Source of the DNA: an uncultured Candidatus Saccharibacteria bacterium
Lineage (GTDB): Bacteria; Patescibacteriota; Saccharimonadia; Saccharimonadales; JACDBH01
NCBI GenBank assembly: GCA_964431415.1
Contig: CAYSJS010000006.1
Location: 252 to 64,251, forward strand
Length of the DNA stretch: 64,000 nucleotides
Direction: 5' to 3'
Shown: positions 38,690 through 47,278 of the stretch, piece after piece
Numbering within the stretch: the stretch's first letter is position 1
How the letters are laid out: every line of letters begins with the position of its first letter
The notes under the pieces: generated by a model
The model's database searches: none
What the model was told of the DNA's origin: nothing
What the model saw: the letters and a program-made list of their open reading frames with translations, nothing else
Made by a program: the position numbers and the translations under genes

Positions 38690-38900
38690 CACTACGGGTA
38701 GCGGTTAAGCGCCGTGCTACACTGGGAGTACTTAACAATCAAAGCTGGAATCTGGTGTAAATCCAGAACTGTGCCGCAACGGTAATCTATCGAGGAAAAA
38801 ATAGAGAGTCCGATCTAGCTACTTTTAAGACTTCCGAGCAGGAGCATTGAGTCATATGATTTTACAGCCTGCACCCGGAAGTCACCCGAGCAGGTTTTTT
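38690..38900 (+). promoter_or_regulatory. Structured 5' leader with a cobalamin-riboswitch-like core
   Basis: 38741-38786 AAAGCTGGAATCTGGTGTAAATCCAGAACTGTGCCGCAACGGTAA resembles the conserved core AAGGGAA..GGUG..AAUCC....C.G..CCCGC.ACUGUAA. Downstream, CTTCCGAGCAGG (38831-42) and CCTGCACCCGGAAG (38868-81) can pair, as an alternative to CCTGC/GCAGG plus TTTTTT, which abuts the ATG. Confidence 0.4.
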
Positions 38901-38902
38901 AT

Positions 38903-40222
38903 ATGTCTGAATTAGTTATCAATGATCATAGAAGTGAGGGCCGAAAGATATTTGATATGTCCTCAAGTGTCATGTTGCTGCGACATGACCTAGAGCAAAA
39001 TGGGGCTGTGCATCCCGAAACGGTACAGCGTGTTTTTGATGAGGAAATGACATATTTAGCTGAAGGCGTGAATCGATCTTTATATACTAAATTTGAGCTT
39101 AAGCCCGTAGACGGCAGGCTCGCGTACTTTGATAAAGGCAGGTGGCGACCATATGTTGGAACACTTGAGAGGGCGGTTGGAGTTGCTCGCGCCGACGCCT
39201 CGAAAGACTATCGAAAAGAGTTTTTAGTGGATATGTGCGTTACTGATCTAACGATTGGTCTTACGCTCGAGAGGCTTGAAAGGGGTAAAAAATTTAGTTG
39301 GTTTTCGCCATATCCTCGAGTTATTGAAGAAAGATATGGAAAAGAATTCGTAGGTGATAGTGGCTTCCAGCCTGAGCGTGCAATGGGGTTTTTATATCAA
39401 GCGACAAAGAATTTAGACGGGAGCTTAACACTCGAAACTCAGTCGGTCGACAATAGTGACGACGAAGCTTTCAAATGTGCTATGTATGAGGCGGATCAAG
39501 CAGAACAGAAAACTATTAGTGATATGCGCGCCGCATATGATAGGACGCTAGCGGAAAAGTATGGCGGAATTTATTTTGCTGGCAGAAAAGTGAGACCAGG
39601 CATGAAAAATGAAAACGCATGGGATTTGATCAGAGAACACTCTGACTTGCTTAACTATTTCATGCAAGGCATACAAGACTTAGCAGCCGCCTTTCATCTT
39701 GACAAGGAACAGGTTGAGACTGAAAAGAAGTTACTGACGTATGGTGTGTGGGCGGCGCTGAAGCAAAGGCTTGACGCTTCAAAGCTGCCAGCAGGACAGC
39801 GTGGCGCAACAGTTGGATATCCTGTGGAGTATATACATTTAGAGGTCCAACAAGCCTTTAGAGAATATAGCGAAAGAGGCGAAGTCCTCGTGGGGTGCGG
39901 AGGCTCGATCAAGGGCGTTCGTGACGCTATCAGAGACAGTGATCCGCAAGACGTATTTAATGATATTTTCGGTGAGGATGGTAAGGATAAGTGGGTATGG
40001 AAAAAAGGTGTGTGTCGGGTTGACGCTTGTCCAACTCGTCCTGGGCAAACAGAGGTTGGGCCCTGTGCGGTGTGCAGGAACTGTCAGCACTGGTTTGATA
40101 AAGGGCACGACCCGCAAAAACTGTATCGCGGTTTACGGCTTGCTGCTCAAGATGCGGTTACGACAAAGACAAAGAACAACAGCAAGACAACAAAGGTAAA
40201 AAAGAAAGTTGAAACAGTATGA
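38903..40222 (+). CDS. Hypothetical protein (439 aa) with a C-terminal Cys cluster (zinc-ribbon-like) and a Lys-rich tail
   Basis: Long ORF ending in CRVDACPTRPGQTEVGPCAVCRNCQHW. No family recognised. Confidence 0.6.
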   Translation: MSELVINDHRSEGRKIFDMSSSVMLLRHDLEQNGAVHPETVQRVFDEEMTYLAEGVNRSLYTKFELKPVDGRLAYFDKGRWRPYVGTLERAVGVARADASKDYRKEFLVDMCVTDLTIGLTLERLERGKKFSWFSPYPRVIEERYGKEFVGDSGFQPERAMGFLYQATKNLDGSLTLETQSVDNSDDEAFKCAMYEADQAEQKTISDMRAAYDRTLAEKYGGIYFAGRKVRPGMKNENAWDLIREHSDLLNYFMQGIQDLAAAFHLDKEQVETEKKLLTYGVWAALKQRLDASKLPAGQRGATVGYPVEYIHLEVQQAFREYSERGEVLVGCGGSIKGVRDAIRDSDPQDVFNDIFGEDGKDKWVWKKGVCRVDACPTRPGQTEVGPCAVCRNCQHWFDKGHDPQKLYRGLRLAAQDAVTTKTKNNSKTTKVKKKVETV

Positions 40223-40419
40223 GCGGGCTAACAAAAGAGCAATACGAAAAGCAGGCAGCGCAGTGTGACGGACTGTGTGAAGTACCCGTGTCGTCACAGC
40301 AGGAAGCTGCCAGTGAGCTGCCCTGCGTGAAGTGCCCTTTTTGTCATGAGATAGTAACGGCCCGGCTGACGCCTACGACCATTAGCTGCCCGGCATGCAA
40401 AATAACCGTTTCGAGGTAA
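40219..40419 (+). CDS. Zinc-ribbon mini-protein (66 aa)
   Basis: CVKCPFC...CPAC. Its start overlaps the upstream stop (ATGA). Confidence 0.5.
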   Translation: MSGLTKEQYEKQAAQCDGLCEVPVSSQQEAASELPCVKCPFCHEIVTARLTPTTISCPACKITVSR

Positions 40420-40428
40420 ACTACTATA

Positions 40429-40599
40429 ATGGCATCCGAAGAAGAAACGATATATCAGGAAATGGTGAAAGAAAAGTCTCCAGAATTTTACTGCGACAAC
40501 TGCGACTTTTACCCCATCGTTCCGGTCCACGGGCATTTTGAATGTCCGCAGTGCCACTACAAAAGCAAATGCTGCGAAGGAATGGCGCTGGATGCGTAG
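40429..40599 (+). CDS. Zinc-ribbon mini-protein (56 aa), below the size cutoff of the ORF track
   Basis: Manual translation: MASEEETIYQEMVKEKSPEFYCDNCDFYPIVPVHGHFECPQCHYKSKCCEGMALDA*. The last 11 codons form repeat copy 1. Confidence 0.4.
   Translation: MASEEETIYQEMVKEKSPEFYCDNCDFYPIVPVHGHFECPQCHYKSKCCEGMALDA
40567..40599 (+). repeat. 33-bp perfect direct repeat, copy 1 (AAATGCTGCGAAGGAATGGCGCTGGATGCGTAG)
   Basis: Identical to 40783-40815. Confidence 0.9.
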
Positions 40600-40782
40600 C
40601 ATGTACTGTCTTTGGGGAGAGCAGCCCGAGCAATCCGGCCTTGCCGGTTCTCGGCGCGATGAGAGGGTGAAAAATGCCAGTGGCATTTTGCAAGGCCGCA
40701 GCCGCGACGGTGGCGAGGAGGGCCCGACCAAGTTTTCAGCAGAAAACTACGGGTGGGTTTCCCCCTCTCATAAGCGAAGCGA
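40600..40782. other. GC-rich 183-nt multi-hairpin element between the 33-bp repeats (candidate structured RNA or small inserted element)
   Basis: Closing helix ATGAGAGGG (40660-40668)/CCCTCTCAT (40764-40772). Internal hairpins: CCGAG..CCGGC-CTT-GCCGG..CTCGG, AAAATGCC-AGT-GGCATTTT, AGTTTTC-AGCA-GAAAACT. Overlapping ORFs occur in several frames, which is typical of non-coding GC-rich DNA. Confidence 0.3.
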
Positions 40783-40815
40783 AAATGCTGCGAAGGAATG
40801 GCGCTGGATGCGTAG
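40783..40815 (+). repeat. 33-bp perfect direct repeat, copy 2
   Basis: Identical to 40567-40599. Confidence 0.9.
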
Positions 40816-40875
40816 ACATCAAGTAACACGTATCAAATATCATGTATCAAATAGTAAATATCAGGCATTTTCTTC

Positions 40876-41469
40876 ATGAAGCGTATTGGTATACTTGCCG
40901 GCACGTTTGACCCGGTGCATAAGGGGCACCTGAGTTTTGCGATGCAAGCAGCCGAAAAAGCAGGGCTTGATGCGGTGTATCTAATCCCCGAACCGAAACC
41001 ACGGTACAAAGGCGATACAACCCACATTAGCCACCGAACGGCCATGCTTCACTTAGCGGTTGAAGGCTATTCAAAAATAAAAGTATTAGAACTGCCGGAC
41101 AAACAGTTTTTAGTTGCTACTACCTTGCCGCGGCTTAAACAACAATTTCCCAATACGGAGCTAGTCATGCTTGTAGGCATAGATGTACTTGCCCACATGT
41201 CGGTGTGGCCGCACATACGCACTCTTTTAAAGGACATGGGCCTGGTGGTTGCTGTTCGGGGCGACAAAGACGAGCGGCATGCCTTTCAGCTGCTGGCTCG
41301 TTTGCCGGTTGAGCCACGCGAAGCGCATGTGCTGATAAGCAATTATAAAATGGTTGCCGCACGCGAGATCCGTAGCGCCTTAAAGACTAAAAGTGAGCCT
41401 GAGGGCATGCTTGGAAGCGTAAAAAAGTACATAAAAGATAACTGGCTCTACCAAGGAATCATTAAGTAG
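40876..41469 (+). CDS. nadD: Nicotinate-nucleotide adenylyltransferase
   Basis: GILAGTFDPVHKGHL (the HxGH-type motif of cytidylyltransferase-fold NMNAT/NaMNAT enzymes), 197 aa. Confidence 0.8.
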   Translation: MKRIGILAGTFDPVHKGHLSFAMQAAEKAGLDAVYLIPEPKPRYKGDTTHISHRTAMLHLAVEGYSKIKVLELPDKQFLVATTLPRLKQQFPNTELVMLVGIDVLAHMSVWPHIRTLLKDMGLVVAVRGDKDERHAFQLLARLPVEPREAHVLISNYKMVAAREIRSALKTKSEPEGMLGSVKKYIKDNWLYQGIIK

Positions 41470-45967: not shown

Positions 45968-47278
45968 ATGGAACGAACATTAAGTAAAGAAGTGGCACAG
46001 CATATCGGCGCAAGCGTAATGATAGAGGGCTGGCTACATAAAAAACGCCTACTGGGCGGTCTGAGTTTTATTTTGGTACGCGACCGCAAAGGGGTGACTC
46101 AGGTAGTGGTTGAAGATAAAGACGAGGTTGAAAAACTCCGTGCACTGCAAATCGGCACGGTGCTTCGGGTTGAAGGCAATGTCGTGGCCGAAGAGCGTGC
46201 CCCGGGCGGCGCCGAAATTCACGATGCAAAACTTAACGTCTTGGTACCGGTGCTAGATGTGCCGCCGATAGAAATCGACAAACCGTTAGACCATAAACCC
46301 GAGAACTTAGACACGTTACTAGACAACCGTGTAGTGGGGCTTCGGAACCTGCGAGAAACGGCTATCTTTAAGATTCAGGACCGAGTACTCGAAGGTGCGC
46401 GTCGATATTTTTATCAAAATGGTTTCACTGAAATGAAAACTCCAAAGCTTCTTGCAAAGCCGACTGAAGGCGGAGCCGAGGTGTTTATGTTAGATTATTT
46501 TGGCAAAACGGCCAGCTTGGCGCAAAGCGCGCAGTTTTATAAGCAAATAATGGTTGGTGTGTTTGAGCGTGTGTTCGAGATGGGCGGTACATACCGAGCC
46601 GAGCCGAGTTCAACAACGCGGCATATGACTGAATATGTGACGATTGACTGTGAGATGGGCTTCATAACATTCGACGAACTGCGCGAGTTTGCGCACGGAC
46701 TTCTAAAGTCGGTTGTAGACTTTGTTTGGGAAGAATGTCCTGATGAAGTAAGAATGTGGAACTTGCAAAAACCGCTCCTTTCCGACAAAGCGGTTTCGCT
46801 CACCATGGCTGAAGTACATGAATTGTTTGAAAAAGCTAACAACACAACCGTAGAGGATAAAAAGGATTTAACGCCATCCGAAGAAAAGTGGATTTGCGAA
46901 TACGCCAAAAAGAACCTCGGCACTGAAGCGGTATTTGTGACCGAATGGCCTGCAAGTTCGATGAAGTTTTACCATAAAAAGACCGAAGGCAATGAAGAGA
47001 TGTGCGACCGAAGCGACTTCTTGTTCCGTGGTGTCGAAATCATGACTTGCCCAATGCGCGAAAACCGGTATGACGTTTTAATTCAGCAGATGAAAGATCA
47101 AGGACTCGATGAAACCGAAGAGGGGTATCAAGCGTACTTAAGTGCCTTCAAATTTGGCCTGCCGCCGCATGGTGGTTTCGGACTCGGCATGGAACGCTTA
47201 ACACAAAGAATCCTTGGACTGAATAACGTTAAAGAAGCCACACTCTTCCCGCGTGACATTAACCGCCTCGCCCCATGA
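45968..47278 (+). CDS. aspS: Aspartate--tRNA ligase, archaeal/eukaryotic type (class IIb)
   Basis: OB-fold N-terminus, motif 2 YRAEPSSTTRHMTEY, and C-terminal GLPPHGGFGLGMERL...LFPRDINRLAP (FPRDxxRLxP is typical of type-2 AspRS). Confidence 0.75.
   Translation: MERTLSKEVAQHIGASVMIEGWLHKKRLLGGLSFILVRDRKGVTQVVVEDKDEVEKLRALQIGTVLRVEGNVVAEERAPGGAEIHDAKLNVLVPVLDVPPIEIDKPLDHKPENLDTLLDNRVVGLRNLRETAIFKIQDRVLEGARRYFYQNGFTEMKTPKLLAKPTEGGAEVFMLDYFGKTASLAQSAQFYKQIMVGVFERVFEMGGTYRAEPSSTTRHMTEYVTIDCEMGFITFDELREFAHGLLKSVVDFVWEECPDEVRMWNLQKPLLSDKAVSLTMAEVHELFEKANNTTVEDKKDLTPSEEKWICEYAKKNLGTEAVFVTEWPASSMKFYHKKTEGNEEMCDRSDFLFRGVEIMTCPMRENRYDVLIQQMKDQGLDETEEGYQAYLSAFKFGLPPHGGFGLGMERLTQRILGLNNVKEATLFPRDINRLAP

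Follow-up and report, generated by a model that had tools for sequence, protein, structure and literature searches.

We analysed a 64,000-nt stretch of DNA (the window) from an uncultured Candidatus Saccharibacteria bacterium (contig CAYSJS010000006.1, assembly GCA_964431415.1, positions 252–64,251, forward strand), which contains a hairpin-rich insert of 183 nt between two perfect 33-bp direct repeats at the 3' end of a small gene. On balance, we read the window's 216 bp, the insert plus one repeat, as a recent insertion of a small, non-coding, non-autonomous structured-RNA element that would spread by copy-and-paste, duplicates its target and belongs to a family of the candidate phyla radiation (CPR). 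The insertion is polymorphic, with filled and empty alleles, and its core is a member of a dispersed family with base-pair covariation and strand asymmetry, whose copies are biased towards tRNA and 5S rRNA genes, carry flanking duplications of variable length and can be nested in one another. An initial annotation of the locus had offered two readings, an inserted non-autonomous element with a long target duplication and a structured RNA of unknown class. Our results support both as essentially right and as descriptions of the same thing, the former through an empty site and a multi-copy family with flanking repeats, the latter through strong covariation and the absence of a match in Rfam.

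The window insertion has a precise empty site

The 33-mer AAATGCTGCGAAGGAATGGCGCTGGATGCGTAG was found in exactly two copies in the window, at 40567–40599 and 40783–40815 (+ strand), with zero mismatches; a search allowing 3 mismatches gave no third copy in the window and 0 matches in 100 shuffles. As initially annotated, the left repeat is the native end of a 56-amino-acid (aa), Cys-rich open reading frame (ORF) at 40429–40599 (+ strand), comprising its last 10 codons and the stop codon TAG, and the right repeat is the target duplication. Because the insert lies 3' of this stop codon, the 56-aa gene is intact, and the duplication is not needed to restore its frame, as had been suggested. The element landed directly 3' of the stop, within a same-strand gene run upstream of the gene initially annotated as nadD.

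Same-species contigs were retrieved from independent metagenome assemblies by exact-protein look-up. The filled allele, with both repeats and the insert, was present in seven independent SPAdes or MEGAHIT contigs (L001, L002, L004, L005, L007, L011 and L015), with one G-to-A difference in L002 and L011. In contrast, contig L006 (ERZ17987007, present in three samples) carried the left repeat as its sole copy, and its gene-to-nadD gap was 60 bp compared to 276 bp in the filled allele. L006 is a precise empty site of the same species: the two alleles differ by exactly 216 bp, corresponding to the 183-nt insert plus one 33-bp repeat, and the empty allele lacks the 57-nt leader and 11-nt trailer that surround the conserved core in the window. 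The initial annotation had raised the possibility that the duplication was an assembly artefact, which is ruled out by the filled allele in at least seven independent assemblies. Logan contigs, built at k = 31, break at or inside the 33-bp repeat, as expected. The default final k-mer of SPAdes and MEGAHIT is normally longer than 33 bp; the repeat is shorter than this, and a contig that skipped the insert would therefore need real spanning reads.

A covarying core is shared across CPR lineages

Folding of the insert reproduced the initially proposed structure, in which a 9-bp closing helix (P1; 5' strand ATGAGAGGG at 40659–40667, 3' strand CCCTCTCAT at 40763–40771, + strand) surrounds three hairpins, with an extra hairpin upstream at 40626–40654. 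The minimum free energy of the insert was −77.6 kcal/mol (z = −2.8), and the minus strand gave z = −2.9. Both strands fold about equally, and folding energy alone therefore leaves the strand unchosen.

The route to the family was a second database cluster of an ORF called across the element, which led to locus L016, where two diverged tandem copies of the central 100 nt differ by compensatory changes. A search pattern consisting of two shared motifs, GCAAGGCCG ... TTTTCAGCAGAAAA, was scanned against 185,579 species-representative genomes and matched 96 loci. Among the 80 matches listed of these 96, every named record was of a CPR lineage (Saccharibacteria, Parcubacteria/Paceibacteria, Minisyncoccia, Nomura-, Kaiser-, Taylor- and Yonathbacteria), and eight were labelled just 'bacterium'. 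Several metagenome-assembled genomes (MAGs) had three or four pattern matches on separate contigs, and a second pattern, covering hairpins P3-P4 only, matched at least 120 metagenome contigs. We built a covariance model (R1) from 80 cores. On the 64-kb window it gave a single credible match, at 40657–40761 on the + strand (81.5 bits, E = 7e-22), which sets the bounds of the conserved core (~105 nt); in 654 kb of retrieved loci it gave 138 matches, with up to 5 copies per 8 kb. A candidate second window copy at 46423–46508 scored 9.7 bits and was rejected; from inspection alone, we take this segment to be aminoacyl-tRNA-synthetase coding sequence. The core is known from more than 200 loci with covariation, and the possibility that it was unique, without covariation and absent from relatives, which the initial annotation had set against its own readings, is contradicted by the many copies in CPR and their strong covariation. 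The nearest relatives of the window core are Saccharibacteria copies in L033, L085 and L016 (~86% identity), of which the L085 core sits in the T-loop of a tRNA-Glu.

In the alignment of 80 cores, compensatory double changes were detected in 17 of 25 pairs. Paired cells amounted to 95.5%, compared to 73.5% in shuffles and 41–51% with slid partners, and the covariation score was 0.58 versus 0.17, a value matched by 0 of 500 shuffles. In members found by the covariance model rather than by the pattern, the apical P4 stem and the outer P3 helix covaried too. One P4 pair was G-U in 58 of the 80 sequences, and the folded strand is therefore the window's + strand. These results indicate that selection acts on the conserved core in the form of a folded single strand with the sense of the window's + strand, most likely RNA.

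In the window, the core (all + strand) comprises J1/2 (GUGAAA), P2 (40671–40678/40682–40689), J2/3 (GCAAGG, 40690–40695), P3 (40696–40718, with a GCA/GA internal loop and a GACG loop) and P4 (40721–40757, with a bulged A at 40749 and an apical UUUUC-AGCA-GAAAA at 40733–40746). Across the family, P2 is variable in sequence and loop, P3 consists of a 3-bp outer helix, a GGA/GA internal loop and then 4–5 bp with a GACG or CUUG loop, and P4 has ~15 bp, a conserved bulged A and an apical stem-loop. Among cores selected on P3-P4 only, GCAAGG was present in 21 of 114 and GUGA in 43 of 114. Given this scarcity, P3-P4 is the universal module, and the window represents one subtype, which adds J1/2 (GUGA), P2 and J2/3 (GCAAGG). 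The closing helix P1 was rejected as a family feature, as mean flank pairing (−7.8 kcal/mol) was barely higher than in the control (−6.6 kcal/mol), and P1 is specific to the window locus. The initial annotation had treated the whole 183 nt as the element; its conserved part is only the ~105 nt of the core.

The 57-nt leader (40600–40656, + strand) includes the upstream hairpin and the motif TCCGGCCTTGC at 40634–40644, and the 11-nt trailer, AAGCGAAGCGA, occupies 40772–40782 (+ strand); both came in with the element. We infer that they are donor-site remnants moved along with the core. A blastn-short comparison with all loci identified TCCGGCCTTGC as the reverse complement of the GCAAGGCCGGA form of a family motif (J2/3). 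The leader may be what is left of an earlier host scaffold with a tRNA-like fold; ARAGORN called a tRNA-Glu(UUC)-like cloverleaf from leader plus trailer at a relaxed threshold only, with a T-loop put in place of the core, which is a weak lead. The metagenome scan returned 0 matches for a donor copy with the window's leader. The trailer motif GCGAAGCGA was rejected as an enriched feature (10 found versus 5.5 expected).

Searches against Rfam 15, at gathering and permissive thresholds, gave no match on the element, whether with 4 kb of the window (E ≤ 10), with 4 related loci or with 196 nt alone. No match to the family was obtained in viral contigs by pattern scan or in GenBank phages by blastn, and a tRNA/tmRNA scan called nothing at the element's site. 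Known catalytic folds (hammerhead, hepatitis delta virus (HDV)-like, group II intron) were rejected from inspection of the junction sequences and the lack of a covariance-model match. The element has superficial group II likenesses, namely a 5' GUGAG and a bulged A ~8 nt from a 3' AC; a group II intron or fragment was rejected, since Rfam models did not match, P3 was unlike domain 5 by inspection and the interrupted host copies were decayed. The S-domain of RNase P has GGGUGAAA ... GCAAGGCC, a possible resemblance to the element on which no conclusion here relies. Full-text literature searches on CPR/Patescibacteria RNA motifs, ribozymes, tRNA, 5S, introns and repeats gave no description of the element. 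It apparently represents an undescribed, CPR-wide structured-RNA repeat family with an unusual tie to duplicated tRNA, 5S and gene-end fragments.

Copies carry flanking duplications of variable length

In the genome set, 31 of 98 copies were flanked by exact direct repeats of at least 12 bp; the metagenome set gave 37 of 114 and a mismatched-locus control 1 of 114. Flanking direct repeats ranged from 11 to 133 bp (33 bp in the window), and their sequences were unlike between sites, with no sequence in common. The left repeat typically stops at the G-run that opens the core (...GG/UGAG, the slash marking the boundary), and excising UGAG...GUGA restores the continuity of the host sequence. A miniature inverted-repeat transposable element was rejected: conserved terminal inverted repeats are lacking, the sequence is host-derived and locus-specific where flanks do pair, and direct repeats of 11–133 bp are no fixed short target-site duplication. 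The variable duplication length excludes a fixed-stagger transposase and the site-to-site difference of the repeats excludes a shared att core; a cDNA route or template switching at the replication fork therefore remain. In L114 (~1355–1405, − strand), the whole unit (tRNA 3' end, terminator, complement and module) forms a tandem array with a direct repeat of 64 nt, which shows that units can amplify locally.

Copies adjoin tRNA genes, 5S rRNA genes and gene ends

A tRNA or 5S gene was located within 300 nt of 36 of the 99 cores. Among tRNA-adjacent cores, 24 of 27 were oriented as the tRNA. Orientation relative to protein genes was unbiased (45 same, 36 opposite). Typically, the 5' part of a tRNA is followed by the core, by a diverged remainder with a spacer and by the intact tRNA, with the mirror layout in L084 and L089; the intact tRNA always adjoins the interrupted copy. 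The break point lay after the T-stem in copies of tRNA Glu, Gln and Arg and at the D-arm/anticodon-arm junction in copies of tRNA Ala, Asn and Ile. Copies of 5S rRNA were interrupted likewise, in sense and antisense. In a large subfamily, the module follows a tRNA and the tRNA's terminator and is carried by a minimised tRNA-like scaffold in the same orientation as the tRNA; the scaffold duplicates the acceptor and T-arm ends of the neighbouring tRNA, including CCA, and the module replaces the T-loop. Module excision restored a callable tRNA in 14 of 194 elements compared to 1 of 193 controls.

Protein-gene ends were involved in a similar manner. A duplicated start stands ahead of the genuine one at the uvrA 5' end; in nine loci downstream of rplK, the last rplK codons and stop are duplicated around the module, as at the window; and in ten loci the core lies 3' of cca, a gene named from an N-terminal CCA-adding-enzyme signature by inspection, not by domain search. 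Clustering of neighbour genes showed that neighbours mostly mirror shared gene order (cca, uvrA, rplK, nusG). In L067 (470–650, − strand) and L070 (490–670, − strand), the P2 loop of one core was interrupted by a second core, which again had gone in where stem meets loop, behind a G-run; in each case the position is just downstream of a 5S rRNA gene and antisense to it.

Several further observations were made at individual loci. Downstream of nusG-rplK, the module was present in L136 (7973–8520), L148 (1600–2156), L151 (4067–4620), L216 (2845–3400) and five more loci; in L136 it is followed by a terminator. No rplA start was seen in the nusG-rplK loci inspected, where the module and the duplicated rplK end stand at the place of rplA. 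Some Parcubacteria are without ribosomal protein L1. In L025 (7127–7200, − strand), ARAGORN called a tRNA with anticodon UUA ('tRNA-Stop'), possibly one that serves in suppression or recoding; behind it come two degenerate modules as well as copies of the tRNA's own 3' end. Upstream of a DprA-like gene, L016 (260–330), L033 (490–540) and L034 have in common a conserved hairpin whose loop is CCAGAGGGGGUGGGCACCGCUGG. This hairpin is the insertion target of the window's closest relatives and had no Rfam match at the gathering threshold in L033 and L034; L069 was among the loci noted for it.

Transposase and recombinase genes were found beside some copies. IS200-like Y1 transposase genes of the type associated with repetitive extragenic palindromes (RAYT-like) have palindromes of their own on their flanks, in L038 (3790–3940 and 4576–4600), L063 (4255–4300 and 5018–5045) and L031 (673–730). 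The L038 palindrome, GTGAGAGGAC(A/T)GTCCTCTCAC, resembles the window's closing helix ATGAGAGGG/CCCTCTCAT, and the L063 palindrome contains CAAGGCCGG, as in J2/3 of the core. Large serine recombinase genes lie beside the module in L049 (3981–5615), L108 (382–2079), L104 (259–1896), L170 (2007–3713) and four other loci. In L049 and L108, the recombinase gene and a tRNA converge at the tRNA 3' end, and a pseudo-copy of this tRNA with the module lies upstream. The recombinase genes may belong to elements integrated at the same tRNAs.

Neighbouring genes and reading frames across the element

The GC content of the insert was 0.56–0.59. The GC-rich character initially ascribed to it holds in comparison with the sequence just downstream (0.38), but not with the upstream genes, parts of which are equally GC-rich (0.58–0.59 at 40250–40400). 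The four ORFs around the element are all on the + strand, and no promoter-like or terminator-like site was found within or adjoining it. The downstream gene, initially named nadD, lies at 40876–41469 (+ strand), encodes a CTP_transf_like domain and is 60 nt from the repeat in both alleles. Upstream, the initial annotation had placed a riboswitch. A cobalamin-riboswitch-like match is present at 38748–38845 (E = 5.5e-4), but its 26.5 bits are below the Rfam gathering threshold of 31.5 bits. The genes 3' of this match (38903–40599) are a 439-aa ORF and two small Cys-rich ORFs (66 and 56 aa), none with a Pfam domain, and the three may form an uncharacterised B12-linked gene set.

Long ORFs are present at the insert on both strands (113 aa on the + strand; 90, 89 and 145 aa on the − strand), in agreement with the initial annotation. 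A 95-aa ORF called by the gene finder across the element (40592–40879, + strand) was rejected as a protein gene: it had no Pfam domain and lacked both a conserved reading frame and homologues. Its only 2 database clusters were the window locus and the ORF called across the diverged core copy in L016, and its frame was open in only 28 of the 80 family cores. In the empty allele (L006, 225–296), a 23-codon ORF (MRRHQVTRIKYHVSNSKYQAFSS) begins within the final codons of the 56-aa gene and overlaps the nadD start through ATGA. The 216-bp insertion, a multiple of 3, lengthens this ORF to 95 aa. The 23-codon ORF could be a coupling upstream ORF, or chance. One minus-strand frame was open in 67 of the 80 family cores, and antisense ORFs of the '...YFSAEKS..PRQAPALR..' type recurred in 27 loci by naive ORF extraction (e.g. 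L029 1040–1894 and L088 98–871). These antisense ORFs are an annotation artefact, worth masking in CPR MAGs.

Discussion

We infer that the family propagates by copy-and-paste via a single-stranded intermediate, with template switching at microhomology. Insertion takes place at the boundary between 5' stem and loop, after a G-run, in a hairpin of the host sequence, and typical targets are the T-loop or D-arm/anticodon-arm junction of a tRNA copy, 5S rRNA, gene 3' or 5' ends, and even the P2 loop of another copy. Each insertion is accompanied by a local target duplication of variable length that leaves an intact host gene; the window element would have carried its 57-nt leader and 11-nt trailer from the donor site. 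The route could resemble that of short interspersed nuclear elements (SINEs) or retroplasmids, with a cDNA of a transcript made together with the host tRNA or operon, or could be template switching at the replication fork; the machinery would act in trans, and the alleles would then spread by homologous recombination via conserved host genes. A cDNA route, with template switching and tRNA-like 3' ends, would be like that of the Mauriceville retroplasmid reverse transcriptase (RT).

We tentatively put forward, as a rather unlikely extension of this proposal, that P3-P4 is the handle of a new bacterial retroposon (an 'RNA parasite of tRNA genes') or a new ribozyme that acts at stem-loop boundaries, where it would cut or join RNA. 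Such a retroposon would be transcribed with a tRNA, a 5S rRNA or an operon and matured by the tRNA machinery via the acceptor/T-arm minihelix copied from the host. A polymerase acting in trans would start at the tRNA-like 3' ends and switch templates, and the hybrid copies would integrate by homology beside the parent gene.

Several findings weigh against a recent copy-and-paste insertion. The empty allele is known from a single short contig, though one present in 3 samples, and the 64-kb window has one copy only, with no second site carrying the window's leader. The two search-pattern motifs are invariant by construction, an ascertainment effect. A mobilising enzyme was not found: in 1.36 Mb of flanks, no RT-like ORF emerged from a crude motif filter, RAYT-like Y1_Tnp (PF01797) genes were limited to 4 of 97 loci and had other palindromes on their flanks in each, and serine recombinases occurred in 8 loci only; these genes are too rare to be assigned as the mobilising enzyme. 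A simple cDNA model also has to face duplications that reach into promoter DNA (L101, L081 and L055) and others that are old and diverged, both of which point to DNA-level events rather than cDNA. Finally, at cca, uvrA, rplK and tRNA-Gln, the insertion position is the same across divergent genomes, and the cores are 85–97% identical compared to 62–83% for the adjacent coding DNA, so host-level selection or concerted evolution fits these orthologous copies as well as mobility does.

The last point leads to the main alternative, a functional RNA selected by the host (a tRNA-scaffolded small RNA, a self-cleaving ribozyme or a protein- or tRNA-binding module), with copies arising by ordinary duplication and homologous recombination. 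The RNA would be expressed and matured via the tRNA/rRNA machinery, the acceptor/T-arm minihelix providing RNase P, RNase Z and CCA ends, and the window copy would be an accessory copy lately gained or lost. As with riboswitch and ribozyme classes, junction nucleotides are kept, whereas stems show covariation and can be absent; the orthologous copies outconserve their flanking coding DNA; a large subfamily sits in the minimised tRNA-like scaffold downstream of a same-orientation tRNA; and the recurring contexts (tRNA, 5S, cca and rplK) share a tRNA/ribosome theme. However, the copy varies in presence within one species, orientation relative to protein genes is unbiased, contexts such as nadD, uvrA and gene 3' ends are unrelated, some copies are nested, tandem or degenerate, one third have target duplications, and no Rfam family matches. 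We hold this host-selected reading to be possible but doubtful. The mobility and host-selected readings can be compatible, as a mobile family with domesticated copies.

Other mobile-element models fit less of the evidence. If the element were like REP/REPIN or IS200/IS605 elements, moved as single-stranded DNA by a trans-acting HUH (Y1, RAYT-type) transposase, the hairpins would be DNA recognition structures; the strand-specific structure with tolerated G-T pairs is in keeping with this, as are the Y1_Tnp genes that lie, in 4 of 97 loci, no more than 8 kb from a core (at 220 bp in L063 and 760 bp in L046) and the likeness of the L038 and L063 palindromes to the window's closing helix and J2/3. 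We consider this origin improbable, given that RAYT-flanking palindromes vary by locus and are not the core despite the short motifs shared, that the window is without a RAYT-like gene, that duplications of 11–133 bp are common for the element, and that it is conserved across separate CPR phyla, unlike species-specific REPs. IS200/IS605 and REP elements are not known to make target duplications. Perfect direct repeats with a precise empty site are also the expected outcome of att recombination, in which a serine or tyrosine recombinase would move a mini-cassette, with the 33-bp repeats as attL and attR and excision of the 216-bp unit as a circle. The large serine recombinase genes that converge on a tRNA beside the module in 8 loci would suit such a cassette, but these neighbours are possibly coincidental, tRNA genes being general integration hot spots; the repeats differ in sequence and length (11–133 bp) at each site without a common att core, and no recombinase gene lies near the element in the window, which makes the cassette very improbable. 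Scarcely credible are readings of the feature as a local duplication that occurred once, as an artefact of assembly or as a genuine small protein gene. The single copy in the window, the overlap of the 95-aa ORF's stop with the downstream gene's start (ATGA) and an insertion length divisible by 3 speak for them, and they are opposed by the filled allele in at least seven independent assemblies, by the covarying core in more than 200 loci and by an ORF that has no Pfam domain, no homologues except ORFs called across cores and a frame open in 28 of 80 cores.

The proposed insertion of a mobile structured-RNA element invites comparison with known systems. Like tRNA-derived SINEs, the element is non-coding, falls within 100–300 nt, exists in many dispersed copies with variable-length target duplications and may often rest on a tRNA-like scaffold; in both, flanking donor sequence can travel along, and a conserved stem-loop is a possible handle for an enzyme acting in trans. 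Unlike them, it resides in a bacterial host, has neither an A-rich or tandem-repeat tail nor an internal promoter, and has no partner RT resembling those of long interspersed nuclear elements in the 1.36 Mb of flanks by the crude motif filter; its site is moreover within a copy of the neighbouring gene, in the T-loop or at the D-arm/anticodon-arm junction, and its duplications reach 133 bp. The Mauriceville and Varkud retroplasmids of Neurospora mitochondria integrate beside tRNA genes via hybrid cDNA and homologous recombination. The Mauriceville RT initiates at tRNA 3' ends (PMC9925561). In many of our elements, the end is formed by the copied 3' end of the neighbouring tRNA, with CCA, a likeness that would be mechanistic. 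The retroplasmids differ as 3.6-kb autonomous circles encoding RT, and neither an RT nor a plasmid form was seen for the element.

REP elements, including bacterial interspersed mosaic elements (BIME-REPIN) with RAYT, and palindrome-associated elements (PATEs) of IS200/IS605 are likewise short, structured, strand-asymmetric, intergenic, dispersed and non-autonomous, and Y1 transposase genes are present in a few element loci. They differ in having no known target duplication, in being species-specific and in consisting of a single imperfect palindrome, whereas the element has three covarying hairpins with conserved junctions and is common to separate CPR phyla. Judged by sequence and structure, the element may also recall self-cleaving ribozymes (twister, hammerhead, hatchet, HDV-like and the phage tRNA-adjacent 'theta'), which share its size of ~100 nt, conserved junctions, optional covarying stems and many copies in unrelated contexts, some directly beside tRNAs. 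It matches no Rfam ribozyme model, and, unlike these ribozymes, has target duplications and sits in pseudo-tRNA copies. With tRNA-duplicating integrative elements and archaeal mobile tRNA introns it shares a partial tRNA copy beside an intact tRNA and insertion in the T-loop or D-arm region. Unlike the former, it measures 100–200 nt, has no integrase and has a different repeat at each site; unlike the latter, it has no bulge-helix-bulge that we identified, and the interrupted copy is usually decayed rather than a spliced gene.

A conserved structured element is kept in many copies by tiny, streamlined CPR genomes and has been missed by annotation pipelines, while gene callers predict spurious ORFs across it. 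In CPR MAGs, the family model serves to flag false genes, insertion polymorphisms at the strain level and pseudo-copies of tRNA and 5S. The loci of tRNA, 5S rRNA, rplK, cca and uvrA have been remodelled repeatedly, with an intact copy always left, which points to an insertion mechanism coupled to duplication; we know of no description of such a mechanism for bacterial elements. Were the module to prove a ribozyme or to bind tRNA, it would represent an RNA class that is new and confined to one major branch of the bacteria. Should an RNA intermediate be confirmed, bacteria would have their first family of SINE-like retroposons, one that ties tRNA-like ends to reverse transcription in a natural system, and, if the retroposon reading is true, the family would be a prokaryotic counterpart of tRNA-derived SINEs and retroplasmids.

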